Assembly (NCBI GenBank): GCA_031266955.1 | Contig: JAISAA010000263.1 | Span: 1 to 44,151 of the forward strand | DNA from: Oscillospiraceae bacterium | Lineage (GTDB): Bacteria; Bacillota; Clostridia; Oscillospirales; Oscillospiraceae | Length of the DNA: 44,151 bases | Direction of reading: 5' to 3' | Shown here: in pieces, positions 3,009 through 40,630 of the stretch | How the letters are laid out: every line of letters starts with the position of its first letter | How positions within the stretch are numbered: the first letter of the stretch is position 1 | Notes under the pieces: model-generated | What the model saw: the letters and a program-made list of their open reading frames with translations, nothing else | Databases searched by the model: none | Told to the model about the DNA's origin: nothing | Position numbers and translations under genes: made by a program

Positions 3009-3034
3009 CGTATTGTCTTATCGTTTCCGGGATT

Positions 3035-6700: not shown

Positions 6701-6722
6701 AAAGTGCTATCACCTCACATTT

Positions 6723-6750: not shown

Positions 6751-6793
6751 GTATTTTTTAATTTGCGCATATAATTTTTGTGCTGCAAACCCC

Positions 6794-6822
6794 TTGACAA
6801 CTTCTTCCGTCCGGTGTATAGT
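6794..6822 (+). promoter_or_regulatory. Near-consensus SigA-type promoter upstream of the SBP and giant genes
   Basis: TTGACA (6794-6799), 17-nt spacer, TATAGT (6817-6822). It is divergent from the 6723-6750 promoter and is the only good + strand promoter I see before 7053. Confidence 0.6.
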
Positions 6823-6836
6823 AAGCTTAGACCCTT

Positions 6837-6932
6837 GGAATTCTAAAGAGAATTCCGAAAAAAATTAAAAATTCCGAAACGGCGCGCCGTTTCGTGCGCT
6901 TCCTTAATTTGAACACAAATAAGGAAGCGCAC
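6837..6932 (+). promoter_or_regulatory. Three consecutive perfect hairpins in the ~230-nt 5' leader
   Basis: Hairpin A: GGAATTC-TAAAGA-GAATTCC (6837-6856). Hairpin B: the 20-nt perfect palindrome CGAAACGGCGCGCCGTTTCG (6875-6894). Hairpin C: GTGCGCTTCCTTA, 13-nt loop, TAAGGAAGCGCAC (6894-6932, 13-bp stem). AATTCCGAAA occurs twice (6851-6860, 6871-6880). None is followed by a canonical T-run; only TTTT at 6939-6942. Confidence 0.5.
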
Positions 6933-7052
6933 GAAGGATTTTCAGCCGCTGTTTGAGCGCGCGGGCGGCGGAGCCCGGCGTCGGGATTTGGATCCGGACG
7001 GTCAAAGCGGACAAGATCAAAGCGAACAAAATGGAGGCATAGGTGTAAAGAG

Positions 7053-8771: not shown

Positions 8772-8802
8772 TACCGCACATAAACAGGGGGGATACTTGG
8801 TT

Positions 8803-8928
8803 ATGAAGAATACACTGAAATACCTGAAAAGGCTTGTCAGCGCGGCGGCGCTGAAACGCGCGATAGCGGCGCTGCTCGTGGCGCTGACGCTGATGCAGAA
8901 CGGCGCCTCAATACTGCCCGCGCTTGCC
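8803..8928 (+). other. Signal peptide of the giant protein
   Basis: MKNTLKYLKRLVSAAALKRAIAALLVALTLMQNGASILPALA|DTGEE: a basic n-region, a hydrophobic core and an A-L-A cleavage-type site ending at nt 8928. Confidence 0.7.
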
Positions 8929-11900
8929 GATACGGGAGAGGAGCAGACACAGCAGGAGCAGGTGACGCAAACACAGGAGCAGCAGCCGGAGCCGGAGCCG
9001 GAGCAATCGCAGCCGGAACCGGAGCCGGAGCAGACCGGCGGACAGACCGGCGAGCAAGCCGGCCCGCCGACGCCCGGCGCGGGGGATAGCCCGCAGGAGC
9101 CGGCGAAAACGCCGGAGAAAACCGGCGAACAGGCCGGCCCTCCCACGCCGGACGGCAAAACGGGGCAAACGGAGCCGCCAAACGAGAGCTTTGAAAACGG
9201 TGGAGTGCTAAGCGAGCTTGAGGACCGGCTTAATTCCGGCGAAAGCCTGAACAGCGAGGCGGGCCCTCAAAGCGACGAGGGCGAGGAGCCCGAAACCGGT
9301 GAGGAGCCCGGAGACGGCGAAGAAGACCCCGGGCTGCCGCCGGACGCGCAGGGCGAGGTGGGCCTGCGGATTGTCCTAAACAGCGATGGGGCGGAGAGCG
9401 AGTTCCTGGACGAGGATCACAGGGTCCGCATGGTAAAGCCCACGGAGGAGGGCACAAATATCAAGACGGCTCGGGCGATCTTGGAGATAGTGCCGCCCAC
9501 GGCGGGAGCTGCAAACAATGTGGTCGTCCATCTGCGTCTCGGCTACGTGGGCCCGGACGGGGAGGACGGCGCCACGTTTAAGCACAGCGACAGCCCCCTT
9601 GACGAGGCGCAGGCCCCCGGCTACGGCGGCGTCTGGGTCAACATTGAAGAGGACAGCGCCAGTACTGAAGCGGCGTGGATAATCCCGACGGAGGAATGCG
9701 CGGGCGTAATAAACCAAACGATAGAGGATGACGGGAAGCTCTGGCATTACGGCTCAGAGGCCGTCATACTGTTTCCGAGCGTGCCGGACACGTATCATTT
9801 TACGGTTCCGCTGGAGTACGGCTTCTACGGCGAGGTGCCGGAGGGTATGCGCTTTTATATGTACGCCTGGGTGGAGTACGAGGGCATAGACGGGAACACA
9901 GACTTGGGCTGGAAGCAGCCCTACAGCGGCCCGTATCAGGAGACGATTTTTTATCTGCTGCCGACAAATATAAAGTGGCAGCCAAAGGTTGACGTCGTAA
10001 AGCCGGTAGTCGTCGCATGGGACAGGTACAACTATGACGTGTTCGACGTCAAGGTGAATAACAACTCGATAAAGCCCTCGGCTGTTATCAACGACACAAA
10101 GCTTTTCTTCACAGTCCCGCCCGCCTTCTCAAACCAGAAGGACGCGAACGGCGGCGAGGTGGACCCGGATATCCGCCGCTGGAAATACAACGGCGACGAC
10201 CCGCCCGTCGAGGTGACGAACTACGACACCGGTATCTCCAACGACCCGTACATAGGCGTGATCGACAAGGGCGGCCTGCTGATCTACGACGTCACGGATA
10301 TAGACCCGGAGCTGCTGGAGGGCGAGGCGTGGGACAGGCTCATGCCGACGCTGACGGGCATCCCCTACTACGTGACGGGCGACGGCCAGATATACTTCAA
10401 TATGGGCAATACGCTGCTGCCCGATCCCGCTAACGTCGAGATTGCCGACGTCGATAATCAATACGGCGGCTACAGGCAGCAATTTGAAGACCTCGACGGC
10501 CGCGCCGAGAGAAAATACCGTATATACATCCCGATAGCCAACCTGTTCAACTACCGCCCGGCGGATATCATCACCGGCGTGCAGGCGACAATATTTTTCG
10601 GGCACGAGATAAAAGAGCAGACCGGCTGGACAAAGGAAGACCTCGCCAAGGTCTCGCACGTGTACCCGAAGCACGAAATGACGTTGAGAAAGTACACGGA
10701 CACCCCCACAAATTACCTGTACGAGGACGCGTCATTTTACATCTCGGACGTGACGAACGTCGAGCAGGACGAGGGGAACTACACCCCGGCAAAGGTGCGC
10801 CTGACGGACGCGATACCGGACGGCTTTATGCTGGAGTACATCGAGTACATAGTTCCCGACGACGATTACTACGCCCCTGAAAACTGGCTGGGCGAGGACG
10901 GACGCTACAGCTATTATCTGGTGGACGACGGCGACCCGGATAAAAACGAGTTCAATATCACCGTCAACAATCCGGACGATGCCGAAAGAATTGAAGTGGA
11001 GGCCGACGTATACCCCGCGCTGGAGTACAGGCGGAACATCTGGAGTGAGGTTCTTGACCCCGAGACACATGACCCGGTGCTCGATCCCGAGACGAACGAG
11101 CCGCTTCTGGAGCTCACCGGCACGGAATGGGTTCCGTTTTACGCCAACGACGAGGCTGTAAATGCGTTGACCTCGGAGACGGCGAAGACGCAGGCCCTGT
11201 TCGGTGAATATACCGTCGAAGACGATAAGCGCGTGTACCGCATACCCGTGCCGGCGGAGTTCAACAAGGATCTGCAAAAGGGCGTGGAGCCGATCGACGT
11301 CGTACAGCCGCCGTCGCCGCCGCTTGAGCCGCACGAGCTCCGCATAAATTTCAAGGAGTATTTCGACATCGCCTACACGTTCCCCGGCACGTTCAGGCTG
11401 GCCGGCAATATCAACAAGACGGGCGTGATCGAGAATACGGTCAGGCTAAACCGCGATTACCGGCACGAGGTAACAAAGCAGGACGATTACACGAAGACTT
11501 GGCGCCCCACCTATGTGGAAAACCCGCGTGACGTGGCGAACGGCGTCCTAAAAGGGATGATCGGCGAGCTGCCGCCCGTGACGGCGACGGCCCGCATCAC
11601 AGTGCCCGACCCGCTACCCGTGCTGACGATGAAAGCGTTCGCGGACGATGTGTCGCCCGGCAGTGGTGAGGTGAGCGAATGGGTCTACGGAGACGCGTTG
11701 CAGGCGATACAGCACGCCCCCGTCGGCTACAGGGCGGACATTACGATGAGCAACGCAAGCTCGATGCGCGACGTTGACGCTGAGCTGACGATCCCGTACA
11801 ACGGGGGCGTCAACGGCGACCGCGCCAGCTTCCGCTTCTCAGATTTCTACGTCAGCCCGCAGACGGTCGAGGTGGCCGGCGTCACCTCAATAAAATTCTA

Positions 11901-14900
11901 CAGCGACGAGTTTTCCGGCGATATGGATGGCATACTCCCCGCCGTGCCGTATCTGCGCGACGAGGTGCGCGTCTATCCGCCCGAAATTGAGGGCGGCGAA
12001 TACACCACGGAGATATTCCACTACCCCGACCCGTCCCGGGCGGAATGGGCGGACGCCGACGACCATACTAAGGGCAGAGTGCCGCCGGAGGAAGTGACGG
12101 GCCAGCCGAGCGGGACCGAGTTCACCGCGTGGCGTATAGCGGCAAACCCGGTATCTGCGGAGGAATATAAGTACAAAATATTCGCGGAGTTCGACAACGC
12201 CGGCGGCCTCATTATATATATGAGCGACGCGGCGGCCCCGGCGGGCTTGGATGAAAATGAGCTGACAGGCGACTTTTCCGTTGACCCCAGCTACAACGTC
12301 GGCGACCCCTCCAAGTCAAACAGGCTGCTGCGCTGGGCGTACAAGGTCCCGAAAATCTCCCTGCACCTGTTTGAGATACCCGGCGGCACAGCCGCAAACA
12401 CCATATTCGTCCAGATGAACGCGCGCGGAAGCTCCCAGGCCTTAAACGCTGAAAATAATGACGAACGGGTCACGGAGTACGGCATCGCCGCCCCCGGCAC
12501 GTACATTTCGCAGGGCACGCTGTCCGCGAAAATACCGACCGGCTATCAGACGCGTAAACCGCTCACCCGCAGCGATACCGCGCGGATACAAATTGCCCCC
12601 GCCACGCTCTGGACGGAGGCAAAGGTGCTGTGGCCTGAGCGGAGCGATACGCCGGCGGATACGAAAGCCGTAGCCTACGGCACGCCGGTGTGGTTCCGTT
12701 ACCGCGCGGGCAATATATCCCAAAACCCGTTTGAGCCGGCGTGGCTGACTATGACGCTGCCGCTTGTGACGGCGGACGCAAACAACCGGATGCGCGGCTT
12801 TCAGGCGGACGAGCTCGAGATTTCAAACGCGCTGTGGTCGCGGCTTAGGGCAAGCTCGTCGAAAAAAAGCCTGCATTCGATAACCTTCGTCAGCGCGGAG
12901 GACCCGGAGGTCACGTTCACGCTTGACCTGGAGAAAGAGGACAATCAGCAATACTATAACTACGACGAAATAGAAACCGACGATAGCATCGCAATGACCG
13001 TCACAAAAGAGCAGTGGAAGGCGTTCATAGCATCGGAATACACAGCCGAGAACGAAGCCCTGTCGCTGGGTCTGTCCCCCGAGACCATAGCGGCGCTGGC
13101 GGAAAGCTTCCGCCTCGGGCAGGTGCGCCTCGACTTCTACGACTACCCGCGTGACGTAGACGGCGAGAAAGACAGGAAGAAGGTGGAGCCGACAGTCGCA
13201 TACTGCGACGAGGTGTACATTAAAGGCGCCGTGAATCACTATTTCACAGCGCAGCAGCCCGGCGTAACAAGCGTGGTGTGGGACGGCGACAACATTACGG
13301 CGCCGGTCAGCGATTCGGCAAGGGTGACGACGACGCCGTTCACAATAGGCGCGCAGGCGTACACGTTCAGGAACGGAAAGGACGCCGTACTGAAAACCGC
13401 CGACCAAGCGCCGTTCAACGACCCGGGCAGCGCCCCGTACATTTTCCGTCTGACAAACAGCAGCGTCAGCGGCGTCTGGGACTCAGCCGTCGAAATAACG
13501 CTGCCGCTTATCACCACCGGCAGCGCCGCCGGCAGGGGCTTTCAGGCCGAGGCGGTGACGCTGACGGAAGAATTCTTCCGCGACGCGGACATAGCGTGCG
13601 TCCGGCTGACGGGAACGGGCGGGACGGAAACGGACGAGTACGGCAAACCGATCACCGAATACGTCATAGAGGCGGCGGCTATAGAGGCCGGGATGAGCGG
13701 GGAGATTTACATCATAACCGAGGACGCTGAAGGCTGGCAAAAATATGTCGGCAAGCTGTTAAAGGTGACGGTGGAGCTCAACAGCTTTAAGGAGCAAGTG
13801 ACTTTCGCGACGAGTTACACCCCGGCGGAGCCGGGTGATCCGGAGGATCCGGAAGACGAGGGCACACCGGCGGACTACGGAACCTATTTCGACCACCACA
13901 TCCGCGTGGACGGTCACATCGACGCCTACGAATATTCCGCGGCGGCCAAAAACTTTGTCGCGAACGTCGTCTGGCGCGTGCGGGACTTCGCGGCGGAGCA
14001 GAGGGCAAACGCGCAATACGAGGTGACGCCCGCCAACCCCATTTCGGTGGCCTACGCCTGGGCGAAAGAAGACGACGAGGGGAACGATATGCCCTACGCG
14101 GACGTTTTTTACGATGAGAACGAAGGCGACGGCTACGGCATACATAATGACACCGCCGTGTATCTGGAGCAGGACAAAGAAGAAGGCTCCCCGGCCTACG
14201 TGTTCGAGCTCAACAACGACTCCGCGAGCTGGCTGTGGGAATCCGCGATACATATCGAGCTTCCGGTGAACACCTACGGCAGCGCGGTAAACAAGGGCTT
14301 CCGGGCGGAGTATATAAAATTCACTGCGGAATTCCTGCGCCACGCCGTCATAGCCGGCGGCGAAAACGGCGTCATAAAGCTGACGGACTCCGAGGGGAAA
14401 ATATACGAGATACCGGTCTCCGAGCTGGACCTGCCGGCCAATCACGCGACGATCAAGCAAAATGACAGCTCCGCCGCATACACGGAATATAAACTCTCTT
14501 TGACGGGCCTCAAGGCGACGGACGGCGAGGACTTCGGGCTTTTGCGCTTCATAGACGTCGAGCTGTCGGACTATAAGGGCGAAGCGAAGCACGGCGAGGA
14601 CGGCGAGGGCGCCAACATCATAGTCGGCGGCCTGTTCGACGCGACGCATTACTTCGGGGAACCGCTCTATCCGGCTAATTGGAGCCATGAGTTCCCGGCG
14701 GTGATCACCTGGACGTCGAGCGGCGTGAGCATACCGCGCACCTACAATACGGCGAAATTCTCCGTGACCGATTTCAATTTGCAAGTCAGGGCTTTCGCGT
14801 GGGGCGAGGACTACGCTACGCTCCAAGCTATGTTCAACGACTCAAACGAGCATAACGCGACCGCGAAGGACGGCACGCGCGCGCCGGTATCCGGTGACCC

Positions 14901-17900
14901 GACAGATTTGCAGGGAACAAGGTCAGCGGACAACAAAGCGGCGACGGCGTATTTAGAGAAGACCCATCCCGCCGAGAACGCCGGAGCTGAAAACTATCCC
15001 GGCAATCCGGTGTACGTCTACGAATTCAGCAACGCGTCCAAAAGCGCGGCGTGGGCCTCCACGATAAAAATCGACCTGCCCATCAGAAGCGGCGCCGACG
15101 CCGTCGAGGATAAAGACCCCGAAAACAAAGTGGCCCTGCCCAACACCAGCATCGACGTCGGCGACGAGGGCCGGGGCTTTATAGCGGAGGAGCTGACGCT
15201 CACAAACGAGTTCTTACGCTCCCTCGTCCCGCCCGACGTCAATGAGGCGAATCTGCTGAAAGGCATAACGTCGATAAAGCTGTTCGACGCCGACGAGGAA
15301 ATATCGCCGGTAACGGTAAGCTTAGCGTCGGTGAGCATTGAGGAGGACGGCGGCGACCTCGTAATAAAAATATCCGATCACCAGACAATTAAAACGCTGA
15401 AAACCGTAGAGATAAAGATCAACGGCTTCAAGGGCGGCGTCACATTCCGCAACAAGCTTGATTTGGGCGAGAAAGAGCAGGACGCCGAGGACGACGAGTT
15501 TATTTTCGGCGCGAACATCTATATCCGCGGCTACGCTGACGCCTACACGCTGACAAAAACGCCGTTCAAGCCTGAGCTCCGGAATACCTACAACAACGCG
15601 CAGATCGTTCAGAATAGAGCGCCGGAAACATTCTTCGAGCTCCAAAGCCACGTCGATTGGAAGGACGACACCTACAAAGCAGGCGGCGCGGACGACGCCT
15701 GGTTTGACTGCGTACCGGCGGACCTGACCGTAGAGGCCTTCGCGTGGAACAAGGACGGCGACAAGCTGGGCGAAAGCGATTACGATGAGTTTTTGAAAAA
15801 GGCGACGAACAACGCCAAAGCCTTTTATAAAGAAACGCCCTCCGCCTACGTCTACCGTTTCAGCATAGCCGGCAACAGCGGCATATGGGACACGACGGCC
15901 ACGATAGAGCTGCCGGCGACCGTCGCCGCGGCAACCTCACCCGCCGATCCCAAGCTGAACACCGGCCGGGGCTTCGTGACGGAAAGCATCGTGTTCACAA
16001 AAGAATATCTGCAAGCCACGGCGCACGCGTTGCCCAACAACACGTCGGCGTTCTCGCTGGGTAAGGCGGCGATAAAAGCCGTGACGCTTACCGACACGAA
16101 CGGCAAAAGCTATGCAATACCGCTGGAGCCGGACGATATTGATATAAACCAAGACTGGGTGATAGTGGTCGCCGATTTGCGCACGGATCAGGAAACGGCT
16201 GATATTTTCGCGGACTTCGCAACGCTGAAAACAGTCGTCGTGGAGCTTGAAAGCTTCAACGGTCTTGTCCAAAAAACCGATAACGCGAACATCGTGATCC
16301 ATGGCGGGTTTGACGACTTCGCCAACTATCCGGGCATTGATAACAGCCTCACCGTCTCCGCGAACGGCGACCGCTTCACGACGACGGTGCTCTGGGTACC
16401 GCGGGGCGAGCGCACAGACCCGACGCTCGCTTGGTGGCAGAGGATCGACGGCTGGAAAGCGCACCCGATCACAGTCAGTAGAAATCAGGAACAAACGACA
16501 TTGCAGCGAAACTGGGTCTTCACCCGCTACCTGAAACGCGTGGACGCCAGCGCGTACTTCGCCGTGCCCCGCCCGAACCTCGTCGTGAAGACGACGGCGC
16601 AGAGCGACGAGCGTCTGCCTAATGTGGAAGAGGAAGTCCAAGACCCGCCGCTCCCGGACGACGCTGAGCAGTTCTATTCGCTCGTGGACGTGCCGATCTA
16701 CAGCGGCGGCCAGTTCCGCTACCGGATGACAAACGTCGGAATATCCGGAGACAGCGAGACGGCAAACCTCGTCAGTATGATGGACGACCCGTATGTGTCG
16801 CCCTCCGGCGCCCCGGCGCCGGCCAACGGCGACACGGAATTTTTGATGACGATCGCCGTGCCGGTGAACAAGGACGACGCCTTGCAAAATCCGAATATGG
16901 GCTTCCGCATGAACTACGCCGTCATAACCTCCGGCCTGCTGGAGGCGGCGACGCTGTCAAAGGTCGTGTTCAAAAACAGCGCCGGCGAGACGTATGAACG
17001 CGTAATAACAGCGGAGGAAAACGAAAACGATGCCGAGCTCGTGATCCCGATAACGGAATGGGAGGAAAACTGGGCTGAGCTTGACGAGCACAGAGCCGGC
17101 GAAAAAGCGGCGTACCCGAACGAGATAATCATCTATTTCACGCGCTTTGAGCGCGACGTGTTCACGATAGACGAAGCCGATTTTTTGATCCACTGCGACA
17201 CCGATCCGGAATGGGAAACGCAGGACGAAAAAGGCGTGATCGACGACGGAACCGAGCGCGTGATAAACACATATTACGACCACGTCAGCACGGCGTTGTG
17301 GTACAACCGCTACCTCGCGTGGAAGCAGGGCAAGGTCCCGAACGACGCCGCCTACGTAAGAAGCACCGGCGCCGCCATAACGACAAGCGCGGCGAATATC
17401 TACGTTTTCCCGGCGATACCGTCTCTGGCGCAGCTGGCGTATGACGCAGACACGGCGGATCCGGGACGCCCGTTCTACGATTCCGAGGAAACGGTGACGT
17501 ACCGCGAGACCCAGTCCGGCTACTGGGTGCAGCTCTACAACCCCTCGCCCAGCATATCGACGAAATCCAAGGCGACGATAACAATACCCCACGAGGGCGA
17601 GAAAACCAACGACCCGAGAGGCTGGGGCTTCATCACGGAATCGGTGGACTTCAACGAGGCGCTTATGCGCAGCCTCACGGGCCGCGAAACGAATTTGTCG
17701 AAAAACGACGCCGACGGCACAAGGATCAGCGCCATTTACCTCTACGAATACGAAAATGACGAAACGCCGAAGCAGACGATAATCGGCGGCGATCCGGATG
17801 ATCCGCGCTATCTGGCGGCTCTTGATACCGCGGAAGCTTTTACGCTGCTGGCGGCGGACTACTGGGAAGACCCGGCTGATCCGTACACCCTCGGCAAAAT

Positions 17901-20900
17901 AGTAGTGGAATTCGGCGAATTCGACGGCTACGAAAAGCTGCCCTGGAATTGGGACTATGAGGAGCACTACGACTATCTGTGGCCGCACACCGACAAACAC
18001 GATAGCCTAAGCGACGAGGCCTACTATGCCACCGCCGACGAAGCGTCCTCGCTTATCTACATCAACGGACATACGGAATGGTACTCCACCTACGCTGCGG
18101 AAAATTACAAGGTGCCGGTGTTGTATGATCGTTGGAACTATACCGGCGGGAGTATTGAAGAAACAGAATGGCGGCTCGACAGCGAGGAATTCCAGTGGGT
18201 GCACAAGGATCTGCTCATTTCCACCTCCCGCTGGGAAAACAAAGACCTCAGCACGGCTGTGAACAACTATCAAAACACAAATCAGCAATATGTGACCGGG
18301 ACTACGCTGATAAACTACCAAGCGCAGGACGGGATATCGACAGACCGCGCGGCGCTGTACGTCCCCTACGGCAACGCCGTAGTGTCGGCCTACTCGTTCT
18401 ATGAGCACGCCGATTCGCCGGGGATGAAATACCCGACGCCGGAGGAAGTGTCCAGCCCGTCGGGCGCGGCGCGAGAAGTCGGCTACGATGACAAAGACGT
18501 AACGACGGCCTTTGAGTCAAACGCGGGCTACAAGTTCGTACTGGGCAATGAGCCCAACGGCCAGATGTACAATATGAACTACGCCCTGCGCACGGACGAT
18601 ATAGATATAACGGGCCGTGATTTTGACGTGCCCGATTCGCTGTTCCAGAACACTGAAATAGGCGTTGCCTACAACTTTTTCAATAACATGGGCTTTGATG
18701 ACTACAATGGTATATCGGTCCCGACACACACCGGCTTCACCTATTTCTACGGCGCCAACAGCCCGCTGCTGAACAACCCCGTCGTGCGTGCCGGCGGCTG
18801 GTACGAAATCAGCCAAAGAGTCCCGCACGGGGGAACAGGCGGATGGCACAGAGGACTTAATCTGTATCCGTTGCTGGCGGCATATTACAGCTATGACGTA
18901 CCGCTGTTCAACAACGGGCCGGCCTACGGCGGCAACGGCGGCGCCGGCAGCGACGGCGAGGGCGGCACAAACGTCGGGTATAATTACCCCGCGGCGCCTA
19001 ATTATAATTATCTGCTGTCAAACGCACAACAAATCAAGCAGCCGCTGCCCGGAGAGACCAAGGCCGGCAACACGTACAATATGGGCAACGACCCCAACAA
19101 GCGCTACTCCTTCACGGGCAGCAAATTCTACAACGCCTATTTCGATATCGACGTCCCGGTCTACGGCCCCGACAACGCGGCGCCGGACTTGAGAAACAAG
19201 GGCTTTGTGGTAACGAGCGTAGAAATAAGCTCTGAATTGATAGAAATGCTGCTGGAAAACACGGACAAAACAAACGTCGATGAATTGTTTGACAGCCTCG
19301 TCATATACGGCAACAGGGGAGTGACGGCGGGCGCGGGCGTGAGCTCCACAGTGACGCTGACCGGGGAGGAGCTCGCCGCTTATTATGACGACACCGCGGA
19401 ATCGATCACGCTCCCGCGCGAAGCGTGGTTCAACGCTTCGACCGCAGAGGAGAACGCCGACCTCGAATACGCGGCCCGCTTTGAGCTGAAGATCAAAGAA
19501 TTTCCGCAGGAAATTTCTCGCGATGAGAACTGCGCGATCTACGTCTACGGCTATTCCACCCGCTACGAGAAGCCCATGGACGCCGTGGGTACGTGGCGTC
19601 AGGATTCCGCGCCTTACGCGGATAACGGCGATTTTTATGAGAAAATCGATGACACCTACAGCTATTCGCACAACCCGTACCATAAGATAATATCGAACGG
19701 CGCATACTATTACTGGCACCTGAACGGCAGGGAGTACTTAGCCGATGAAGACCTGATAAGCGCCGCGAAAAACGGTGACGGTAACAGCTACGTCTACCCG
19801 AAAGCCGAGACCTGGACAAACGACGCGCGGGACTGGGCCCGCATCCAAATCGCGCCGCAAAATCTCCGCGCGAGCGCTTTCGCGATGAAACCTAATACGA
19901 CGGCTCCAACGCAGGAAAAGCACGACGTCGTAGAGGTCCAGTTCAGCGAATCCGGCGGCTACCGCTTCCGGCTGAGCAACAACAGCATAAGCAAGGCGAT
20001 AGACGCCTATGTGACGCTGACGATGCCTCTGACCGCCCTCAACGACGCCGACGCCGCAAAGCGCGACCAAGGCTTCATAACGGACAAGCTCACGCTGACA
20101 AAGGCGCTCTTTGAAAAGGCCGCCCCGGACGAAATAACATTTACGAACAGCGCCGGAGAGTCGCTGACCGTGCAAATTTCGGATTTTACCGGTAAGACCT
20201 TTGCGGAGTTTGACGAAAACGTTGCGGACAGCGGCGCCGGCTACGACGGCGCCGGCAATCTGATAATAACGATGAAATGGATCATCGCGAATTCGGCGAT
20301 GACGGGCGACGGCCACCTTCTGAACGACGAAGACGGCGTCGGCACGGGCGAAATCGACTACGAACAGGTTTACGAACGCGACGGCCACCCGCTGAAAACA
20401 GTCGCCCTGCACATCCCCACCGTCGTTGCGAATTTGCCGTTTGCGGACCCGCAGACTGACCATGTCAACGGCGTAGACGTCCTGATAGACGGCAAGGCGG
20501 AGCGCTACGGCGACAACACAGCCTCCGTCGGCGGCTACGCCTATCAGCAAAAAGACCCGATCGAGGCGCAGGGAAGCGGGATCGACCTCAACGCCAACCT
20601 CCACGTCAAGCAGCCCAAGCCGCGCGTGGACGTGATCGCGAGCGAGACGTACGGCGCCATAGACGTGAATTATGCGAAAAACCCATATACCAAGAGCGAT
20701 ATCGGCAAGGCCGGCTCCGGCGGCGTGACCTCAGACACGGACGCGGCCAACGAAACGCCGGTGACGCTCGGGCGGTACAACAACCACGCGGCGAGCTTCG
20801 ACGTCGTTCTGGCGAATATCGGCGAGGTGAGCGCCGGCAACAGCAAAACGGTGATCGATTTACCCATGTTCGGCATAGACGGCGACGGCGTAGCCGGCAA

Positions 20901-29900: not shown

Positions 29901-32900
29901 GGTTCAGGTGCTGACTCCCCGCACGGAAAAGGTGCAGGGCGCGACGGCGGCCGATATTCGCCCCGTATACGGCTACGTAAAAGTCGGTGATGAATACATC
30001 TGGCAAGCGCTGGAGGACGGCGATATTTCGGCAATGGCGGACGAAGTGAAAACCAGCTACACCGCCGCCCGGCCGCCGGAGGACACGCCGCTGCGCGAGA
30101 ACACCGTATGGGCGGAGAGCCGTATGCACCTGCGCCGCGGCTGGCTTGCCGCGACGTCGGAGCTCCCGTCGGAAAAATTGGAGTACGAACAAAACCTCGA
30201 CCTCAAGCTTACAGCCTACAACTACGGCGACTGGGGCTTTAGCGGAGTTAATTTTGTCGAGGTAATGCCCTTGGGCACACAGCCCCGGTTCGACTCGGAC
30301 GGTCTCCCCGTGGCGGAGATAACGCTGGGCGGCGTGACCTACAACAGCAAGGATGCTCCGGGCGTAATAAAAACAGAGATCATCCAGAGCCCCGCCTATT
30401 ACGACCCGGAGAATAAACAAAGCCACGCCGCGAAGGTGGACCCCGATAATCAATACGTCGCGCCCATTGAGCAGATGGATTATAACGTGCGGCCCTACGC
30501 CGCCGCGCCCTTACACAATGACATCAACATCGGCTACGTCGCCGACGCCGTCCCGTGGGTTGTGAAGGTGACGGTCACGAGCGAGCTTGGCGTGTGGTGG
30601 AACTCCGCCAAGGAAACCGCGTGGGCGGCGGAGGGCAATCCGCTGCAAAGCGGGTGGGCCGGAGACCCGTCGCAGTACACGGCGGTGTTGAAGGCCGCCG
30701 TAGTGGACCTCAATTACAACGAAAAATGGTACGACAAGCTGCTGGCGTACCCCATTTTGGACGGAAATTCAACGGAATATGAGATTTACGACTATGAGTA
30801 CTCATCCACCGGCAGAACCGGCGCGGCGACTAAGCTCAAGGACAAAATCACCGGCGAGACGGCGGGCCGGGGGACGGATCCTGTTCCCGCGACGTATGTT
30901 TTCCGCCTGTATGAGAATCCGTCGGGGAGGCGCAGCTTAGGGTACGCGCAGGATGATGACGTAAAACGCGCGATCGATCAGTCAACAAACAGTCCCCCAA
31001 CCTTTGGGATCGGGTACAACTATTTTTACCATAGCTGGTACCGCGATAGCGCGAAATATTTCGCGAGAGACACAAGCCTCCATACCGATTACGTCAACAA
31101 AGAAATCAAGCCCATAGCCTGGCAAGCGCCGTACATACACGGCGTCAACAAGCACACCGTCCGCGCCTCGGCGGATATGACGGAAAGCTTGCCGGGCTTT
31201 GAGGGCGTCCCCTATTCCGGCAAAAACGCCTATGAAGTGCGCAAGGTGGCGCGCAACGGCGACTACGCCGACGCCAAACACCCGACCATCGGCCTGACGC
31301 CCAGCGTCGGGGCCGACGCGGAGACGGATTACTCGACACAGGTCTCAGAGCCGATCCAGAATTTTGACATTCACCTGAAGGCGGACTCCACCTCCAACAC
31401 GCTGTTTGACCCGGTGTACACCGTCCTGTTCCCGCAGGGCATAGTCCCGATGACGACCCGCACGGTAGGCGACGTACCCCTGTCCAGCGACGGCACGCCC
31501 TACCCGTGGTATCAGCCGGAAGGCACCTACAGCGCAGAAGGCCCCGGCGAGAAAAACGCGACGTGGCTGAACGGCGTATACATAGGCTCCTGGGACGAGG
31601 GTGAAGGCAAATACGTCAAAGACCCCGAAATAGAGGCGGCGATGGCGCTGATCGACCCGGACGGCGAAGGGATGCAAATATTGTGGTCCGTGGGTCTCGA
31701 CAGCGACGAGACGGCGAAAAATCTCGGCGTAACAGTCAACACCGCCGTGGGCGACCGGCAGACGACGGCAGACCCGATAAAATATCTGGACGGTACGCTT
31801 GTCAGCGATGGCTCAATTACGGAGGAATATCTGAAATCGCTGTTTGACGTGCGCGTGGATTGGCTGTACTACGCCGACGGCGACGCTTACGGCGGTACGC
31901 CGGGCGTGCCCATGCGCCGGTATCTGGTGCAGTTTATCCCGAAAGTGCAGCCTTTCAAAGAGGGCTTGCGCATCCCGCAGGGCTCGTCGCTGACGATCTC
32001 AATAAGAACGGCGGCGGCGGCGACGCCCGAAGTGCTTACCCCCGGCGTGGACCCGGACGACCCGCCCCGCGAAAACGTCGCGCTGGTGCAGCGCTGGCAG
32101 GATATTGTCACTTTCCTGACGAGCCGCAGCGACCCGACGAAGCTGCAAGCGGCGCCGGAGTCCGCCTACCCCTCGTCGCAGTTCAAGAGCGCGCTGACAA
32201 AGTACGAGGAGGACGGCGCCATACAGTTAGAGCACTGGACGGCGGACCGCTTCCCGCAGTACAAAAGGCCGGCGGCCTATCTGCCCCAGCGGGCGAGAGA
32301 AGCGCTGAACGGCGAGGACCCGCACGGCATTGCGCCGGGCGGCGAGCTGGTATATATCTTCACGCAGAACCCGAATCCGGAATCTTGGAAGGACGTCGGC
32401 GTTATGCGCACGATGTACGTCAAGGGCGCGGGGCCGCGGCTTGTGCTGGATAAGCGCATCGTGGCGTCCACCCGTTACGACGAGGAAAAGAACGCGGCCG
32501 TGCCGACGCCGGGCACCCCGGATCAGCCGGACGGCAGGGGAGCGCTTCTGGCAAACAATGCCGCCCCGCCGCTGTACTCCTTCGGCGACGAGATATGGTT
32601 CTCACTGGAGGCGTTAAACGACCCGTCCATCAGAAACGAGTCCAACAAAGACCTCGGCGTCCTGACGAATTCCCAGCTGCTGTTTGTAGACCAGCTCCCG
32701 GACTTCCTCAGCTACGCCTACGATTATATAATAGAGATACAAGACCCGGACGATCCGGCTAAGACCAAGCTGCTGACAAGGGATGAGGCCGCCGCCGCCG
32801 GCTGGCAGATCGCGCTTAAGGCCGATATGACGCAGCCTATGCCCTCCACGACCGGCGCGGAGCATATAGTGATGTTCACGGCGCTGACGCCCAGCCGCGT

Positions 32901-35900
32901 AAAGGACGGGCAGAAGCTGGCTATGGGCCGTATGGAGCCTGACGAATGGTTCCGCCTGCGGATCAAGACCCGCGTGTCAATGCTGCCCGAGCCGGACAAG
33001 GTGGAGGCGCCTAAGGATGTGAACGGGCAGCTGGGTACGGTGCTCAGCGAGTGGGGCCCGTATACCAACTACGCCTATCTCGGCGTGGAGAACAGCAATT
33101 ATCCCACAGCCGGCGTCACGATCTTGGTGGAGCAGGAGGTGGGCTCTATCGAGTTCGCCAACGCCGTGGAGGAATACGCCCAAAACCGCGACTATGACCG
33201 GGACGGCAAAAAAGACAAATTTTTCAGCGCCGACAGCGAGAGACTGAGGCTCTTGCAGCCCAACGTAAACGCCCGCAAGGAAACCGACGGCGTCCGCCAG
33301 CGCTACGACACGGGCAGCACTCAGGTGCCGATCTACACCGCGGCGGAGGACATCGGCTTCGTCTTAGCGGACGTCGAGAACCGCGGCGGCCCGCTAAAGG
33401 AACTGATAATTCAGGACATCCTGCCCAGCAGGGACAACACGACTATGGCGATAAAGGACTGGACCACCAACATCAAGAGCGTCCAAACCGGCAAATGGTC
33501 GGTCCCGGCGCCCTACAGGCCGGCCGATTACGGCGTATACGTCTACTACGCGACGCAGTACACCGACCCCGTTGACCTCGGCAATACCTACGCCACAGAC
33601 CACGGCGCCGGCGGCGTCTGGACGCTTGCAAATCCTGACCTCGACGACGACGGCGTCCCGGACGGTCTGCCGATAGACGAAAACATGGAAATCAAATTCA
33701 TCGTCTACGACGAAGGCGGCCTCACGATAAACACCGCGGCGACGAAGGAGCTGCAAGAGGGCATACGTCAGATACGCATCGTCATACGCGGTAACAACGG
33801 TCAGCTTGTCCCGCAGGGGCTAAAGGTCGATTATTCCGACCCGGAGCCCGATCCGGGGGACTACGATTACACGGCCTATCTCGCGGCGTCCGCGCTGACC
33901 GCCCCGAATTTCGAGCAACCCGGCAATCCGTATGATCTGGGCTCAAAGACCGCCAACATCTTTGACCGTCTGGAGCGGTTCAATTACTGGCAGTACAGAA
34001 ATATGCTCAGCGAGACGGTGCCGAAGCTCGTTCAGCAGCGCGCGCCGATGATATATATGTCCGTCACCGCTTACGAGGCGTTCCCGCTGCCCCTGAAAAA
34101 TCAGGCGCAGTTCTGGGGACAGTATTCGGACGCCTACTTCAAGGAGTTTGAGTATAACGACGCCTCCTTCCGCATCGCGGACACGGTGCCGACGGTGGAC
34201 CTGCGCATCGAGACGCGCTACTTCAAGTACAATAATAATGAAACCCCAACAAATTTGAACGACGACTATTTCGCGTGGTCTAAGGACCTGATAATAAACC
34301 CGCTGCGCTCCACGACGCTGCTGTACAAGGTGCAGTATGAATCGGTGAAGGACGTGGAGTGGAAGGGGCTCCCGGACGTGTGGGATGCGGATTACGACAA
34401 GCGCCTCGCCGACAGCCGCGCGCAGAACGGAGATGATATTGATACGCTCCTGCCTGCCGGATGGCGGGACTTGGACATCGACGAGGTAAACACGCTGGGC
34501 AATACATTCCTGCCCGAGCGGTGGGCGCTGCGCAATCTGGTGGCGTGGAGGATGATACCGCTGGAGCGGCAGAAGCTGTACCGAGAGGACGCGATCATCG
34601 ACCCCGTCGTCACCGTGGCCCTGTCGCCGCTGGCGACGGTGAACGCCGATTTTGAGATGTATAAATGGCAGGCGGACAACGGCGAAGGCGCCGTGGACGG
34701 CGCCCGCAGCTCTCCGCTGCAAATAGCGGGCCTCAGCGAGGCGAACGGTTACAACGAACAGCTCGGCCCGGAGGCGGATTATACCCCCTTCGAGGCGACT
34801 AAGGACCTGCGCCAGATGACGTATAACGGTCAGGCGGGCTATTTCCTGAACAAGGACGCCTGGACGTGGCGCGTCGTGGACGGCTACGGCAGGACCGTAT
34901 ACGACAGCGACGTAATGCTGTCCACAAGGGACAGAGACGGCGACGAGGTGGCCGACCCGAACGTGGTGATAAAGTCCGCCAACATCGCCGAGCCGGACGA
35001 GGCGCAGGACGGCGCCGTGACGCTCAACCGCCAGACTATAACGTGGTTCTTTGAAGGCAAGCTGCTGCCAGGGCAGTACATTGAGATATTATTCACCTGC
35101 GGCGTGGATCACACCAAGAGCTACACGACAAATATGTCGCTGCGCAGCATAGCGTTCGGAATAAACAGATCGGGCACGCTTAAGGCGTATCTGCCCGCCG
35201 GCGAGGAATCGCAGGACGGCCTGTCGCTGCAAAACGACGCGAACGATTTTAACGAAAATGGAAAATTCGTCGAGCGCGACGCCGTGCGCAACTCCGAGCT
35301 GTTCGTGTTCTCCGATATCAGCACGCAGATCGTGTTCAAGGACGCGATAACGGCGCTAAGCCCCGACCCCGGTACGCGCGCGCCGTCAGCGTCGGTGCTT
35401 GAGGAGGGCGGGGACGTGACGTTCGTCAACACGATGCGCAACCCGAACGCGACCTCCGGCGATTCGGCCAAGGACGAGGCGAACACTCTCAAAAACCCGG
35501 TGATGTTTGACATTCTTCCGTTTGTGGGCGATATGGAGGTCGTCTCGCTGGAAACGAAGTACGGCAACGGCAGCTATTATCTCGACGTGATGCGCAGGCT
35601 GGCGGGGCAGACCGATGCCGAAGGCGGCACAAAATGGAACCCGGTGTTCGACCCGTTCTCATTCGAGTCAAGCCTGCTGTCGGAGAAGCGCATAGAGAAC
35701 AAAGTGCCGGTGACGAAGGAGGACGGAACGCCGCTTCTGGATGAGAACAACGAGCCGGTGGTTACGACCGAGTACGAGTATGAGTTCACGGAGGAACAGC
35801 TCGAAAACGGCAAGGACTACACCGTCTGGTACGGTCCGATCACGCGGGACGTGAACGGCACGGTGAACGGTATCGGCGACTTTGAATTTAACAAGGTGCT

Positions 35901-38900
35901 GGACTCCAATACGCCGAACAAAGGCTGGGTAAGTGCTTATGACGAGAGCACGATCACAAACGAGACCCGCAGCACGGAAAGCTTCTATAAACAAATCCGC
36001 GAGGAGATGGTGGATCAGATCAAAGAGGCCGACCTCGCGAGCATGGCCGAGCTGCGGAAATATTTCGTCAGCGAGCCGGAGCTGCGGGCGATGGAAAGCT
36101 CAAATCCCGCGATGTACAATACTCTCGTGAATCAAAACGGCTTCAAGGCGTTCTTCATCCACTTCAACACGAAGGACCAAAGGCTCGCCCCGCACTCCAG
36201 CTGGATCGTGACGTACAAGATGAGATCCCCGCTGAACTATACAAAGCCGCAGCTGAACCCGGACAGCTATCTTGACAGCGTCGCGTGGAACAACTTCGGG
36301 AGCTGGTCGTACAAGGGGACCTCGGGGTCGGCGCCCAACGACTCCAACCTCGCCGGCGTTTACGTCGGCGCGGCGCCGGGCAAGGTGTATCTCGGGGACT
36401 ACGTGTGGTTCGACGCCAACGGCGACGGACTGCAAAACGAGGTGTACGCAAAGCTTGACCAGAACAGCGGCCGCGTGCTGCCCTATATCGACGCGGACGG
36501 CAAAATGTATACGGACGAACACGAAAATGTGATTGCCGACGACCCCGGCATCAACGGCGTCCGCGTACAGCTCCTGTCGCCCGAAGGCTATGAAATAACA
36601 AGCGCCGGCGCGCGCATCAAAAAAGACCCGGAGAACGGGAAGTATTACGCCATCGACGAATTCGGCGATTGGCTCCTTTACAGCATAGACGGTGAGCGCG
36701 TAGAGTCGTCGCTGCCGCCGATGCAGCCGGTAATTACGACGACGGACTACGCCGGCCGGCGCGGCTTCTACAATATGCCCAACGTCTCGCCGAACGTCGA
36801 TTACAGCCTGCGCTTCATATTCCCAGAGACGGAGATCGGCAAGGGCCTGACAATAAAGACGACGCACGGCTTTGACGAGACCGCCGCCGTCGGAGTGACG
36901 GCTTACGGCCCCGGCGAGCTGCTGCCCGACGGCGCGACCGCGGAAACGCTTGTCGTGTACACCGGCAAATTCAGGCTGAAAAGCACTACGGCCGCGCTCG
37001 GCGAGTACGGCGATAATGCCGACAAGTACTACACGGACTTTGATATCGGCGTCAGCTACACGCTCAGCTACGCCGGGACGGTGTGGTACGATTACAACAA
37101 AACGGTGGCGCTCTACGGCAACGGCTATTTAGACGCTACGGACGGCGTCCCCGACGGACAGGGCACAAGGCCGGGCATCGCCGGGGCGACCGTGAGCCTG
37201 ATCGACGCCGATACCTACGATCCCGATGAAGACATAATAGAGACGGTCACGGGAATGAACAACCTCCCGCTGAGTATGCTTACCGGCTTAAGCGGCAAAT
37301 TCCTGTTCAACTTCGTGCCGGCGGGCAATTACATCGCGCGCGTCACGCTGCCGGACGGGACTGAATACTACCTCACGCAATATGTGGGGGAGGACGACAA
37401 GGACCCGTCCGCGGACCCGGTGAACGGAGAGCGTCATCCCAACGACGGAAAAGCGGAAACCGTCCAAGCGGCGGACCCCGAGACGGACGATCCGATAGAC
37501 GTCCCGACGGGCCATTACGTGACAAACGAGTTCACGGCTGAGATGGGAGCGCAAGAAAGTACAAATCCGAAGTGGGACGATGTATACAAGCGTTACAAGC
37601 TGATCGACGCGCTTGACTTCGGCTTCCTGCTGCCGAACTACGGCGCGATAGGCGACGTGATATGGCACGACGCCGACCACGACGGGATTCAGGGCGAAAA
37701 CGAGGCGGGGCTTGAGGGCGTCACGCTGACGCTTGAGGTCTACAAGCGCTTAGCGGACAAGTGGGAGCCGCTGAGCGAGGCTGAGGTAGAGGCGCTGGCG
37801 GCGGCCACGGGTATGAACACCGTAGCCGTGACCGACGAGGACGGCCTTTACAGCTTCACAAATCTGCCGGTGATGGATACGGCGGCGCACAGCGCCTACG
37901 GCTACAGAGTGCGGCTCGCGGAGCTGCCGGACGGATACGCCGTCACGACGTATCACGACCTCGGCAAGGACTCCGGCAATCACTTCAAAAACCCGGCGAT
38001 CACTACGGAAAGCGAAGTGGCGCTCTTCGACAGCGACCTGTACTACAACGGCTATCTCGAGCAGAGCAAGCCCGCCGCGGACGCGTTTGAGCCGATAGTC
38101 GTAGCCGCGCTTGACGATACGCTTCCCGACGGCTGGGACCTGACGAGGCCGCGCGTAATAGACGACCTCGACGGCGGTCTCATCAAAATCCCCGAGTTTA
38201 CGATAAGCGGTATCGCGTGGTACGACGAGGACGGAAACGGCCTGCGCGAGGCCGAGGCCGGCGATAGCCCGTCCCCGGACGAAATGCAGGTAGAGTTGCA
38301 ATACTACGCGTATGAAGACGGCGCGTATTACTGGCGCGACGTCCGCGTGACGGGCGAGGGCGACGAAAAACGCCTGTTGTTCGAGGGCGACGACGGCTAT
38401 GACGGGGCGGAGGGCTACGCGCTGCTCACCGCCACGGGAGCCGGCGACGCCGCTGCCGGCTCCTATAAATTCACAGGGCTGCCGATAGGCCGCGCGGTGG
38501 AGAAAAACGACGGCGTGACGGAGCTGGAGCGTCTGGGCTACAGGGTAAAGGCGACGCAAAGCCTCGGATATGTGACGTTCACGCAATACGTATCGGGAGC
38601 CGGTAACGCCGCTACGGAGAAAATAAACAGCAATGTCATGACAACGGCCGACGGCGGGATAACAGGCTATACCGACGCGCAATATCTGACGAGCGTGTTC
38701 CAACCGCCGATGACCGCGCCAGAGCTGCCGGCGGGCGCGCCCGCGGCGGCGCTGTGGCAGACGTTTGACTTTACAAAGGCCTCGAATTGCGAGAATGTGG
38801 ACGTCGGTCTGAAAAAGGCGGAGCACTCGGCAAAGCTCGGCGGCATAGTGTGGCTCGACATCAACGAAAACGGCCTGATAGACGAGTTTGACGCCGACGG

Positions 38901-40587
38901 CGACGATGCGCCGGATACGCCGGAGGTGCGCTTCCACGATAAGGCGATGTACATCTATGTAAAGAGCCTCAAGGCCGGCGACGACAAGTGGTATCCGTAT
39001 GTTATAGAGAGACCGTACTATCTCTACGAAACAGACTTCAATGCGGACGCTCTGCCTTCGCCCTCAATGGTGCGGACGGGCGGCGACGGGAGCTACGCGG
39101 CGGAGGTCGAGGCTGGCAACTTCAAGCTCGGCGCCGAGGGCTTCGGCAAGCCGTTTGAGTATCTGATGACGACGCAGCGCGTCTATGACGCGGGGCCGCC
39201 GGAAACAGGCTTGAAGTGGACGCTGTTTGACGAAGACGACCCTGATTGGGTGGGCAAGCACGCCGCCAACGAGCAAGACGACCCGTACTATATAGCGAAT
39301 AACTTCCGCGCAGCGGCGGACGGCCAGCTTGCGGACGTCGACCGAGGCGTATCGACCCCGACGCGCCTCGGCGAGAGCGACGACGACACCGGACGCTTGC
39401 TGCCCGAGACGATAGCGGACGCGATGTGGCTGAACTGCGGGCTGATCCCGCTGGATGACGAATACGAGGACAATACGCTCGAGCTCAGCAAAAGCGTGGA
39501 TAACGACGGCTCAGACGCTGAAAACCCGGTACGGCCCGGCGACGAGCTCGAGTACACGGTGACGGTCGTGAACAGAGACATAACGTGGCCGATGAGCAAG
39601 CTCCTGAAAAATGTCGTGGTGTATGACGCCGTGCCGGAGAAGACGACGTTTGTTCCGGGCTCCGTCGTCATAAAAGTGAACGGAACGACGGTGACGCCGT
39701 ACATCCCGGACGGCGAGACGCCCGGCTACGACGGGGAAAGCATAAAGCTTGTGTATATGGGTGCCGCGAACACGGAGGAGACGACTGGTCTGTGGTGGCA
39801 GATACCGGAGCTGCGCATAGACGATACGGTGGAAGTGAAGTTCAAGGTAAAAATCACGGAAGATAAGGAAGAGCTCGGATACGTTTTGGAGGACGACGGC
39901 AAGCTGCACGCGCGGATACTGAACGCCGCCCTCGCGGCGGAATTCGGTACGACCGAGATACCCGGCGACCCGGAGCCGGATCCACAAGACCCGGAGGAGC
40001 GCGACCCGAATCCCGACGTCCCGCCGCTCGATCCCGATACGCCGGTAGACCCCGACGGAGACGGCCCGGAGGAACCGGAGCTGCCGGAAAGGGACGACGC
40101 GGTGACGGAGCTTGAAGATGATCCGCCGGTTCCCGAGCCTTCACCGTCGCCCTCCGATTCTCCACCGCCGCCGCCACCGCCGCCTCTGCGGTCTCCCGAA
40201 CCGTCGCAATCACCGGAGCCGCCGGAGTCCCCGGGACCGTCTGAGCGGCCGAGAGAATCCCCGCCGGTATCCCCGCCGCCGCCGACGGTGACGCCTACGC
40301 CTACGCCAAGCCCCGGAGAAAACAGGAAGCCGCCCCCGCCGAACACGCCGGGCAATACGCTCGTGCCGAACGGAGACGGATACATAGAGATCGACCCGGA
40401 CGGGACGCCGGTAGGCGAGTGGTATCTGGACGACGACGAATGGATATTCGATCCGTTCCCGCCGCTCGGAGAGATGCCGGGAACAGGCGACAGCTTCAAG
40501 CCGGCCGCGCTGGTCGCGATATTCATCGCATCCGCCATAATACTCATTCTCATCTTCTGCGCGCCGAAACGCGGGAAAAAGAAATAG
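8803..40587 (+). CDS. Giant (~10,594 aa) secreted, sortase-signal-bearing cell-surface protein with DUF11-like modules and SdrD-B-like repeats
   Basis: One stop-free frame (ORF track 8797..40587, 10,596 aa). ATG 8803 lies 10 nt after AGGGGGGA, whereas TTG 8797 lies only 4 nt after it. It has an N-terminal signal peptide and a C-terminal MPGTG motif, hydrophobic helix and KRGKKK tail. Coherent domain signatures run throughout. The protein is acidic and aromatic-rich, and Cys is very rare. Confidence 0.9.
   Translation: [10594 protein letters not shown]
8929..9350 (+). repeat. Low-complexity Q/E/P/G-rich linker with short duplicated peptides
   Basis: QPEPEPEQ occurs twice (about 8983-9033). 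[10 protein letters not shown] occurs twice (9046-9075 and 9121-9150); the two DNA copies match at 25/30 nt and every difference is a synonymous third position. An acidic tract [18 protein letters not shown] lies at about 9280-9330. Confidence 0.8.
11720..26420 (+). repeat. Array of highly divergent protein modules sharing a three-part signature (DUF11/CARDB-like by inference)
   Basis: The central motif G-F-x-x-[ED]-x-[ILV]-x-[LF]-[TS]-x-x-[LF] recurs in frame at nt 12790, 13531, 14290, 15169, 15961, 16894, 17620, 19195, 20065, 20905 and 21751. Weaker copies lie near 11820, 18610, 22950, 24196, 25279 and 26368. Each is preceded by Y-x-[FY]-x-[LF]-x-N-x-S...W-x-S-x-x-x-I-x-LP and followed by [IV]-x-[LF]-x-[DN]-x-x-G. 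Confidence 0.7.
36393..39440 (+). repeat. Five SdrD-B-like (Cna-B-type) repeats with calcium-site motifs
   Basis: [16 protein letters not shown] (about 36393), [10 protein letters not shown] (about 37075), [28 protein letters not shown] (about 37648), [16 protein letters not shown] (about 38204) and [17 protein letters not shown] (about 38835). The W-x-D-x-[DN]-x-[DN]-G-x-x-x-x-x-E pattern is the SdrD B-repeat signature. Confidence 0.7.
39475..39875 (+). other. DUF11-type 'conserved repeat' domain
   Basis: [34 protein letters not shown]...[25 protein letters not shown]...[11 protein letters not shown] matches the canonical DUF11/TIGR01451 pattern (PGDxxxYTxxVxN...VxDxxPxxxxFVxGS). Confidence 0.65.
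39961..40350 (+). repeat. Proline-rich, wall-spanning stalk
   Basis: [42 protein letters not shown]...[40 protein letters not shown]...[27 protein letters not shown]. Confidence 0.8.
40474..40584 (+). other. Sortase-type cell-wall sorting signal with a variant motif (MPGTG)
   Basis: MPGTG (40474-40488), then DSFK, a hydrophobic helix [21 protein letters not shown], and the basic tail PKRGKKK before stop 40585-40587. Confidence 0.75.
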
Positions 40588-40592: not shown

Positions 40593-40630
40593 AAAACCGC
40601 CTGCCCTCAACGGAGGGCAGGCGGTTTTTT
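40593..40630. terminator. Strong bidirectional intrinsic terminator
   Basis: AAAA-CCGCCTGCCCTC (40597-40608), loop AACG, GAGGGCAGGCGG (40613-40624), then TTTTTT (40625-30). This is a 12-bp GC-rich stem flanked by an A-tract and a T-tract, between stop 40587 (+) and stop 40629-31 (-). Confidence 0.85.

Follow-up and report, generated by a model that had tools for sequence, protein, structure and literature searches.

A predicted 1.17-MDa surface protein, largely without recognisable domains, encoded by a single gene of an uncultured Oscillospiraceae bacterium

The locus and its giant gene

The stretch of DNA analysed here, 44,151 nt in length and referred to below as the window, contains no N bases and is dominated by one open reading frame (Table 1). 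From ATG 8803 to the TAG stop at 40585-40587 this frame covers 31,785 nt including the stop, or 72% of the window, and encodes 10,594 aa; the ORF listing also gives an alternative start, TTG 8797, from which the product would have 10,596 aa, and it is the sole such ORF on the + strand. The first-pass annotation had described a single stop-free frame of 31.8 kb that occupies about 72% of the window and opens with a proper ribosome-binding site and ATG, and both the ORF listing and the AGGGGGG ahead of the start agree with it. Within the same stretch the giant frame has no internal stop and the other two forward frames have 525 and 314, which excludes chance as the reason for its openness. The encoded protein carries an extreme negative charge along its whole length. 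It contains exactly 10 cysteines, where about ten had been counted by eye, and the enrichment in D, E, Y, W and N that was pointed out at the same time is present and extends to T.

Table 1. Features of the locus, with nucleotide positions in the window
Feature	Residues (aa)	Position (nt)	Strand	Remarks
Polysaccharide deacetylase gene		510-1799	-	
Predicted lipoprotein gene		3035-3937	-	LAAGC lipobox
AAA_14/DUF4143 ATPase gene		4133-5359	+	
AAA_14/DUF4143 ATPase gene		5402-6700	-	
Promoter-like site TTGACA-17-TATAGT		6794-6822	+	Upstream of the SBP gene; consensus match only
SBP_bac_5 solute-binding protein (SBP) gene		7053-8771	+	N-terminal membrane anchor; ends 31 nt before the giant ATG
Ribosome-binding site AGGGGGG		8786-8792	+	10 nt before ATG 8803, 4 nt before TTG 8797
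Giant ORF	1-10594	8803-40587	+	10,594 aa and TAG stop; MW 1.17 MDa, pI 4.4
Signal peptide (predicted)	1-42	8803-8928	+	Read from sequence; hydrophobicity scan
Acidic P/E/Q/T/G-rich low-complexity tip	43-190	8929-9372	+	
Head region, ~1,050 aa	191-1242	9373-12528	+	Without family match or internal repeat
Ten diverged modules of ~250-300 aa	1243-4083	12529-21051	+	Internal HMM searches
Unique region, ~5,100 aa	4084-9194	21052-36384	+	No match, no internal repeat
Five SdrD-B-like domains	9195-10235	36385-39507	+	Each starts G-x-V-W-x-D-x-(N/D)-x-(D/N)-G
DUF11-type "conserved repeat" domain	10236-10400	39508-40002	+	
Pro/Glu/Ser-rich spacer and pre-anchor segment ...GEWYLDDDEWIFDPFPPLGE	10401-10557	40003-40473	+	Presumed wall-spanning
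MPGTG pentapeptide	10558-10562	40474-40488	+	Candidate variant of the sortase motif LPXTG
Hydrophobic helix AALVAIFIASAIILILIFCA, then P and basic tail KRGKKK	10568-10587 (helix)	40504-40584	+	
Intrinsic-terminator-like hairpin		40593-40628	+	16-bp stem, 10 G-C pairs, then T-run
Polysaccharide deacetylase gene		40629-41225	-	Downstream of the giant gene

Our data indicate that the frame encodes one product and not a fusion of several genes, as had been read from the letters alone. Third-position GC (GC3) stays at 0.74-0.80 in every 1,000-codon (3-kb) slice of the ORF, and the codon usage (RSCU) of such slices correlates with that of the flanking genes at 0.79-0.91. Hydrophobic 19-mers are restricted to the N-terminal signal peptide and to aa 10563-10591, and the same hydrophobicity scan finds no internal signal peptides or membrane segments. 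The gene has no direct DNA repeat longer than 40 nt, consistent with the earlier remark that long identical nucleotide repeats are missing; Tandem Repeats Finder reports just two short low-complexity arrays (8976-9038 and 40133-40172), and homopolymer tracts of 8 nt or more, suggestive of phase variation, do not occur. Supporting this picture, an independent assembly, the 34,495-nt Logan contig SRR14710922_177208, encodes after the SBP gene one product, 10,426 aa long up to the contig end, where it runs off, and its sequence is 100% identical to window positions 5586-18771 over the 13,186 nt retrieved. By arithmetic the Logan contig ends near window position 40080, just ahead of the Pro-rich coding repeat at 40133-40172, and a second assembler in this way gives 31.3 kb of the same open frame. 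We conclude that the giant ORF is genuine and intact and belongs to the chromosome of an uncultured Oscillospiraceae bacterium; it is very unlikely to be a product of misassembly or a fusion of genes.

Ahead of the giant gene, the + strand has no promoter-like site other than the one upstream of the SBP gene, and co-transcription of the two genes is therefore possible. An ABC permease or ATPase partner for the solute-binding protein is absent from the window. Further upstream, the two AAA_14/DUF4143 ATPase genes face each other tail to tail in a patch of lower GC content (0.51-0.53, versus 0.59 for the window), and the Logan contig breaks inside the second of them. The predicted lipoprotein shows weak matches to the papain-like Peptidase_C70 and C39_2 families, and together with the two polysaccharide deacetylases it makes the neighbourhood rich in cell-envelope genes. 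Downstream of the giant gene, the opposite-strand deacetylase is followed by rplM-rpsI.

The product of rplM places the host. This L13 protein shares 91% identity with its counterpart in Oscillospiraceae bacterium isolate Pcl387_bin43; after that, the best matches, at 70-74%, come from metagenome-assembled genomes (MAGs) of other Oscillospiraceae, Papillibacter and Sporobacter. JGI sample 3300042612, which is also the source of the homologue contig L082 described below, contains an identical L13, and so does SRR14710921. In Pcl387_bin43, the closest species-representative genome, the deacetylase-rplM-rpsI block (L001 1-2400) has ~81% DNA identity with the window; it is preceded by a masked contig-end stretch whose visible edge is rRNA-like, with no giant gene there. 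It follows that the giant gene either is specific to a lineage at this site or has another location in that MAG.

Domains, modules and unmatched sequence

Pfam, NCBIfam, PHROGs and the PDB together recognise ~7% of the giant protein, all of it in the C-terminal SdrD_B and DUF11 region, and a recognisable fold is absent over ~90% of the chain. The Pfam searches used tiles of 600 aa at E ≤ 0.01 across the whole protein and of 1,000 aa at E ≤ 5 across aa 181-10180; the tiles did not all map to one adhesin family, and matches were confined to the C-terminal region. The initial impression that most of the length holds no nameable domain is thereby upheld.

At the N-terminus, sequence reading and the hydrophobicity scan agree on a predicted Sec signal peptide of the kind that sortase-anchored proteins carry, as annotated from the start, with a basic n-region, the hydrophobic core AIAALLVALTLM and a cleavage site between ALA and DT (aa 40-43). 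The acidic tip that follows has a counterpart in the homologue contig L082, which starts in P/E/T-rich sequence resembling it. Along the head region, the giant protein is colinear with the same metagenome fragment (protein P0003 on contig L082) at 29-33% identity; an AF2 model of the head from a 2-sequence alignment reached a pLDDT of 34 and is unusable.

Behind the head lies the only detectable repeat array of the outer protein. Iterative HMM searches within the giant protein converge on ten module copies, which share the core motif Y-x-F-x-L-x-N-x-S ... I-x-LP ... GRGF-x-x-E-x-L-x-L-T-x-E-F-L. Pairwise identity among the copies is 16-26%, some carry inserts (for example at aa 3170-3420), and the residues invariant over all ten are just P, G and F, inside the conserved LP and GF motifs. 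No further copies were found beyond aa 4083 by iterative HMM searches and hhalign. Highly diverged repeated modules do exist, as the first-pass annotation held, but the detectable ones are confined to aa 1243-4083, ~27% of the length, and over 6,000 aa lack any repetition.

The ~270-aa module is new and probably beta-rich, judging by an AF2 model from the 10-paralogue alignment that consists mostly of beta strands with one short helix, at low confidence (pLDDT 58, pTM 0.60). Foldseek of this model against the PDB returned nothing better than E = 0.03, and the non-significant top matches (Ig-like, integrin calf/thigh-type sandwiches and ApaG) are neither a fold identification nor evidence for family membership. 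By hhalign, the module is unrelated to the protein's own DUF11 or SdrD_B-like domains (probability < 1%). A DUF11/CARDB-like motif, PGD-x-I-x-Y-x-V-x-N ... D-x-LP, had seemed by eye to occur in many segments; we rejected it as evidence, given that an HMM built from eight hand-picked segments recovered its seeds alone and that the module could not be linked to DUF11 or SdrD_B by hhalign. As a separate observation, the insert between modules 7 and 8 (about nt 18310-19062) holds the longest blocks identical to the 48% orthologue described below, such as NAGYKFVLGNEPNGQ and TGFTYFYGANSPLLNNPVVRAG, and may, on this conservation, be a functionally constrained sub-domain.

The unique region that follows makes up about half of the protein. 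BLASTP, phmmer and hhalign detect no internal repeats in it, and Pfam, NCBIfam, PHROGs, the PDB and plasmid tblastn return no match. Collectively, this raises the possibility, which we advance tentatively and with more doubt than conviction, that the ~9,000 unmatched residues hold several undescribed extracellular domain families rather than diverged Ig-like filler. The candidates are the GRGF module with its ten copies of ~270 aa, the head of 1,050 aa and the unique sequence of ~5,100 aa; the protein would then stand for a megadalton, largely non-repetitive and fast-evolving family confined to one clade, a narrow group of uncultured Oscillospiraceae.

Towards the C-terminus the sequence becomes familiar. 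Among the five SdrD-B-like domains, one matches SdrD_B (PF17210) at aa 9613-9797 with 49.2 bits, above the 29.7-bit cut-off; a second and a third fall just short of it (28.2 and 25.6 bits), and the other two are seen from internal similarity alone. The DUF11-type domain, of which one copy is detectable, passes TIGR01451 (32.1 bits, cut-off 24; core at aa ~10242-10290) and lies just below the cut-off of Pfam DUF11 (23.9 bits, cut-off 24.6).

Relatives in public sequence data

The giant protein has almost no relatives among 15 billion public proteins. We found two, with an exhaustive HMMER search against 1.84 billion cluster representatives and with a word-indexed search; each is a fragment on a short metagenome contig, colinear with the giant protein, at 48% identity in one case and ~30% in the other. 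The HMMER search, with aa 3663-4862 as the query, returned two proteins, P0001 and P0002. P0001 is a 1,102-aa fragment from the 4.4-kb JGI contig L081, which matches aa 2926-4363 in a single frame with 48% identity; P0002 was dismissed as a weak, irrelevant repeat-protein match. The word-indexed search with the head returned one protein, P0003, at 33% identity over aa 203-742. Its 3.6-kb contig, L082, aligns in a single frame over two segments, aa 65-1033 (29% identity) and aa 1179-1265 (31%). Both contigs are colinear with the giant protein, so its layout is conserved in at least two relatives, and its sequence diverges fast.

Each homologue contig carries one in-frame TAG, at nt 3338-3340 of L081 and nt 2319-2321 of L082; the corresponding codons of the window are GAA (Glu) and TAT (Tyr), respectively. 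The giant gene of the window itself ends in TAG followed by a terminator, which makes TAG a normal stop in this lineage. The homologue TAGs may reflect sequencing error, nonsense polymorphism or pseudogenisation, and such genes may often be inactivated or mis-sequenced.

The other searches differ in the weight that their negative results bear. Neither aa 4001-5000 nor the module alignment gave a match when used as a query in word-indexed searches; these searches missed the 48% orthologue later caught by HMMER, and their negatives are therefore weak. No exact 8-mers from aa 4001-5000 occur in GTDB representative genomes, in a scan that is insensitive below ~70% identity. Conserved peptide patterns (alignment A2) and a degenerate DNA motif for YFYGANSPLLNNP found nothing in a metagenome contig collection, and both missed the known homologue contigs as well; scans that miss even L081 and L082 indicate that the collection lacks these samples and count as weak negatives too. 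A tblastn search of the giant protein against 80 Oscillospiraceae rplM loci returned only Pro-rich noise. The family came up in our searches in just two JGI metagenome samples, whose numbers almost follow on from each other; the sequence of the window itself is found again in one of the two and in a pair of consecutive SRA runs. Because the relatives surface only as fragments of 3-4 kb, giant genes of this kind are lost from databases.

Anchoring, proposed role and comparison with known systems

We propose that the giant gene encodes an exported, C-terminally anchored (most likely sortase-linked), acidic, Cys-poor fibrillar surface protein of 1.17 MDa, probably an adhesin. The 42-aa signal peptide would direct Sec export, after which MPGTG, the 20-aa helix and KRGKKK would hold the protein in the membrane until, most likely, a sortase transferred it to peptidoglycan. 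The Pro-rich spacer would cross the cell wall, and the one DUF11 and five SdrD-B-like domains would form the base of a stalk. Beyond it, the ~9,000 outer residues may extend as a long fibre that comprises, from the wall outward, the 5,100-aa unique region, the ten modules, the head and a disordered acidic tip; if mostly folded as beta-sandwich-sized domains, such a fibre would have a length on the order of 0.1-0.4 micrometres. Its most probable role would be to adhere to, or make surface contact with, particles, other cells or host surfaces in a gut-type community. Given that ~90% of the chain lacks a recognisable fold and that the module and head models have pLDDT values of 58 and 34, the beta-sandwich fibre and the adhesin are proposed by analogy.

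The anchor merits separate scrutiny, since the first-pass annotation had credited the protein with a complete C-terminal sorting signal. The chain ends in ...PPLGEMPGTGDSFKPAALVAIFIASAIILILIFCAPKRGKKK, followed by the stop, so that the pentapeptide reads MPGTG and not canonical LPXTG. Motif, helix and basic tail are all present, and the helix AALVAIFIASAIILILIFCA (20 aa, Kyte-Doolittle 3.1) is followed by a positively charged tail as in sorting signals; the completeness of the signal is qualified by the variant motif and by the lack of any match among NCBIfam models, including any LPXTG-anchor model in the library, to the last 194 aa at E ≤ 0.1. An exported protein that escapes sortase could instead be tethered by the C-terminal helix alone, with KRGKKK inside the cell and MPGTG a coincidence. 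The methionine in place of leucine and the missing tail match fit such a membrane-only anchor, as does the absence of a sortase gene from the 44-kb window; helix and basic tail would suffice by themselves, and Ebh in Staphylococcus is a precedent for tethering a giant protein by a membrane anchor. We nevertheless consider it unlikely, because the pentapeptide lies exactly 5 residues ahead of the helix and behind a Pro-rich spacer, which is canonical sorting-signal geometry, and because among the three occurrences of [LIMV]PxT[GA] in 10,594 aa MPGTG is the sole xPxTG. SdrD_B and DUF11 domains directly before a Pro-rich spacer are the standard order in Gram-positive wall-anchored adhesins. On these sequence features, the giant protein is probably linked to the wall by sortase.

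A surface protein of this layout could also serve something other than adhesion: a structural coat, a sheath, a spacer, a biofilm matrix, or a decoy against phages, predators or host factors. Pfam finds no ligand-binding domain of a known adhesin family in the giant protein, its negative charge is extreme throughout, and its relatives diverge fast (48% and 30% identity), as expected for surface proteins under diversifying pressure. Nothing positive sets these roles apart from adhesion, however, and the protein has no S-layer (SLH), CWB2 or matrix-protein signature; we give them a minor share of the probability, and adhesion, by analogy with other surface proteins, remains the most probable role. 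Considerably less probable is that the protein scaffolds or carries catalytic or toxic domains that have diverged too far to be detected, for example as a cellulosome-like scaffoldin, a giant glycan-degrading enzyme or a polymorphic toxin. The ~6,100 aa of unique, non-repeated sequence without a recognised fold would offer room for such domains, and the relatives of the host come, judging by MAG titles, from fibre-degrading gut communities. Against it, no enzyme, toxin, dockerin, cohesin, carbohydrate-binding module (CBM) or RTX signature occurs anywhere in the giant protein; no dockerin, cohesin, CBM, glycoside hydrolase, peptidase or toxin family appears at E = 0.01, aside from one isolated CBM53 match below threshold (E 0.016; 15.9 bits, cut-off 27.6), and the C-terminus is an anchor, not a toxin tip. 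The remaining reading, in which the ORF stems from chimeric assembly or the fusion of several genes, or is a pseudogene in decay that stays open by chance, is close to refuted: mis-joins are possible in short-read metagenome assemblies and an in-frame TAG is present in both homologue contigs, but 31.8 kb are stop-free where the other frames have 314-525 stops, long DNA repeats able to drive mis-joins are absent, codon usage is uniform along the ORF, a second assembler reproduces 31.3 kb of it, homologues are colinear with it over two separate regions, and one signal peptide and one anchor stand at its opposite ends.

The proposed anchored fibre has partial counterparts among known surface proteins. 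With the Sdr MSCRAMMs of staphylococci (SdrC, SdrD and SdrE) it shares a Sec signal peptide, wall-near B repeats and a C-terminal xPxTG with helix and basic tail. The Sdr B repeats are of the Ca-binding type, and the giant protein matches Pfam SdrD_B and NCBIfam MSCRAMM_SdrD locally. It has the CnaB-like SdrD_B repeats of this family and differs in lacking the A region with its N2-N3 IgG-like "dock, lock and latch" arrangement: neither SdrG_C_C nor Collagen_bind nor a related family scores above threshold in aa 1-9190, and there is no PDB sequence match. Ser-Asp dipeptide repeats (0 SDSD) and a YSIRK signal are likewise absent; the protein is ~8 times longer and lies 93% outside any Sdr-like domain. 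Without the A region and the SD repeats, the giant protein falls outside the Sdr MSCRAMMs.

Giant proteins of 10,000-30,000 aa have been reported from Clostridia in gut metagenomes, including Oscillospiraceae, with a predicted extracellular role in surface contact, and were described as arrays of RCC1, Listeria-Bacteroides, YG, dockerin and LRR repeats (West-Roberts et al. 2023, bioRxiv 10.1101/2023.11.21.568195). The protein described here shares the bacterial family, the size class and the predicted extracellular surface contact with them, whereas Pfam tiles detect none of these five repeat types in it and over half of it is non-repetitive. It differs from the RTX/T1SS giant adhesins of the LapA, SiiE and MpIBP type in having one isolated GGxGxD and no Big or RTX Pfam match, and in carrying an N-terminal signal peptide and a C-terminal anchor instead. 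Ebh, the giant staphylococcal surface protein, is a single polypeptide of ~10,000 aa with a C-terminal membrane-spanning segment and a fibre-like outer part, alpha-helical and built of dozens of FIVAR-GA and DUF1542 repeats. The giant protein resembles it in length and in its C-terminal hydrophobic segment; it has no FIVAR-GA or DUF1542 Pfam matches, and its module is, in a model of low confidence, mostly beta. A DUF11-type domain before the anchor is common in Firmicutes surface proteins, and one domain in this position passes the TIGR01451 cut-off here; in contrast to DUF11/TIGR01451 proteins, there is one detectable copy, and the ten-copy module is unrelated to it (hhalign probability < 1%).

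To our knowledge, giant bacterial proteins nearly always consist of long runs of recognisable tandem repeats. A protein that is detectably repetitive over about a quarter of its length and recognisable over ~7%, the rest being almost without relatives in 15 billion predicted proteins, is unusual in this company. If it is expressed as one chain, it would be a compact source of new extracellular folds, and it is a candidate key factor for the attachment of an uncultured Oscillospiraceae bacterium of a gut fibre community. The near-total absence of recognisable domains, repetition and homologues in a 1.17-MDa protein merits structural follow-up. We see no new mechanism in it: export, anchoring and stalk logic look conventional, and the size by itself is not unprecedented. 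Set against the known systems, the wall-proximal part, with its spacer, DUF11 domain and SdrD-B stalk, is conventional, and the distal 9,000 aa are new.
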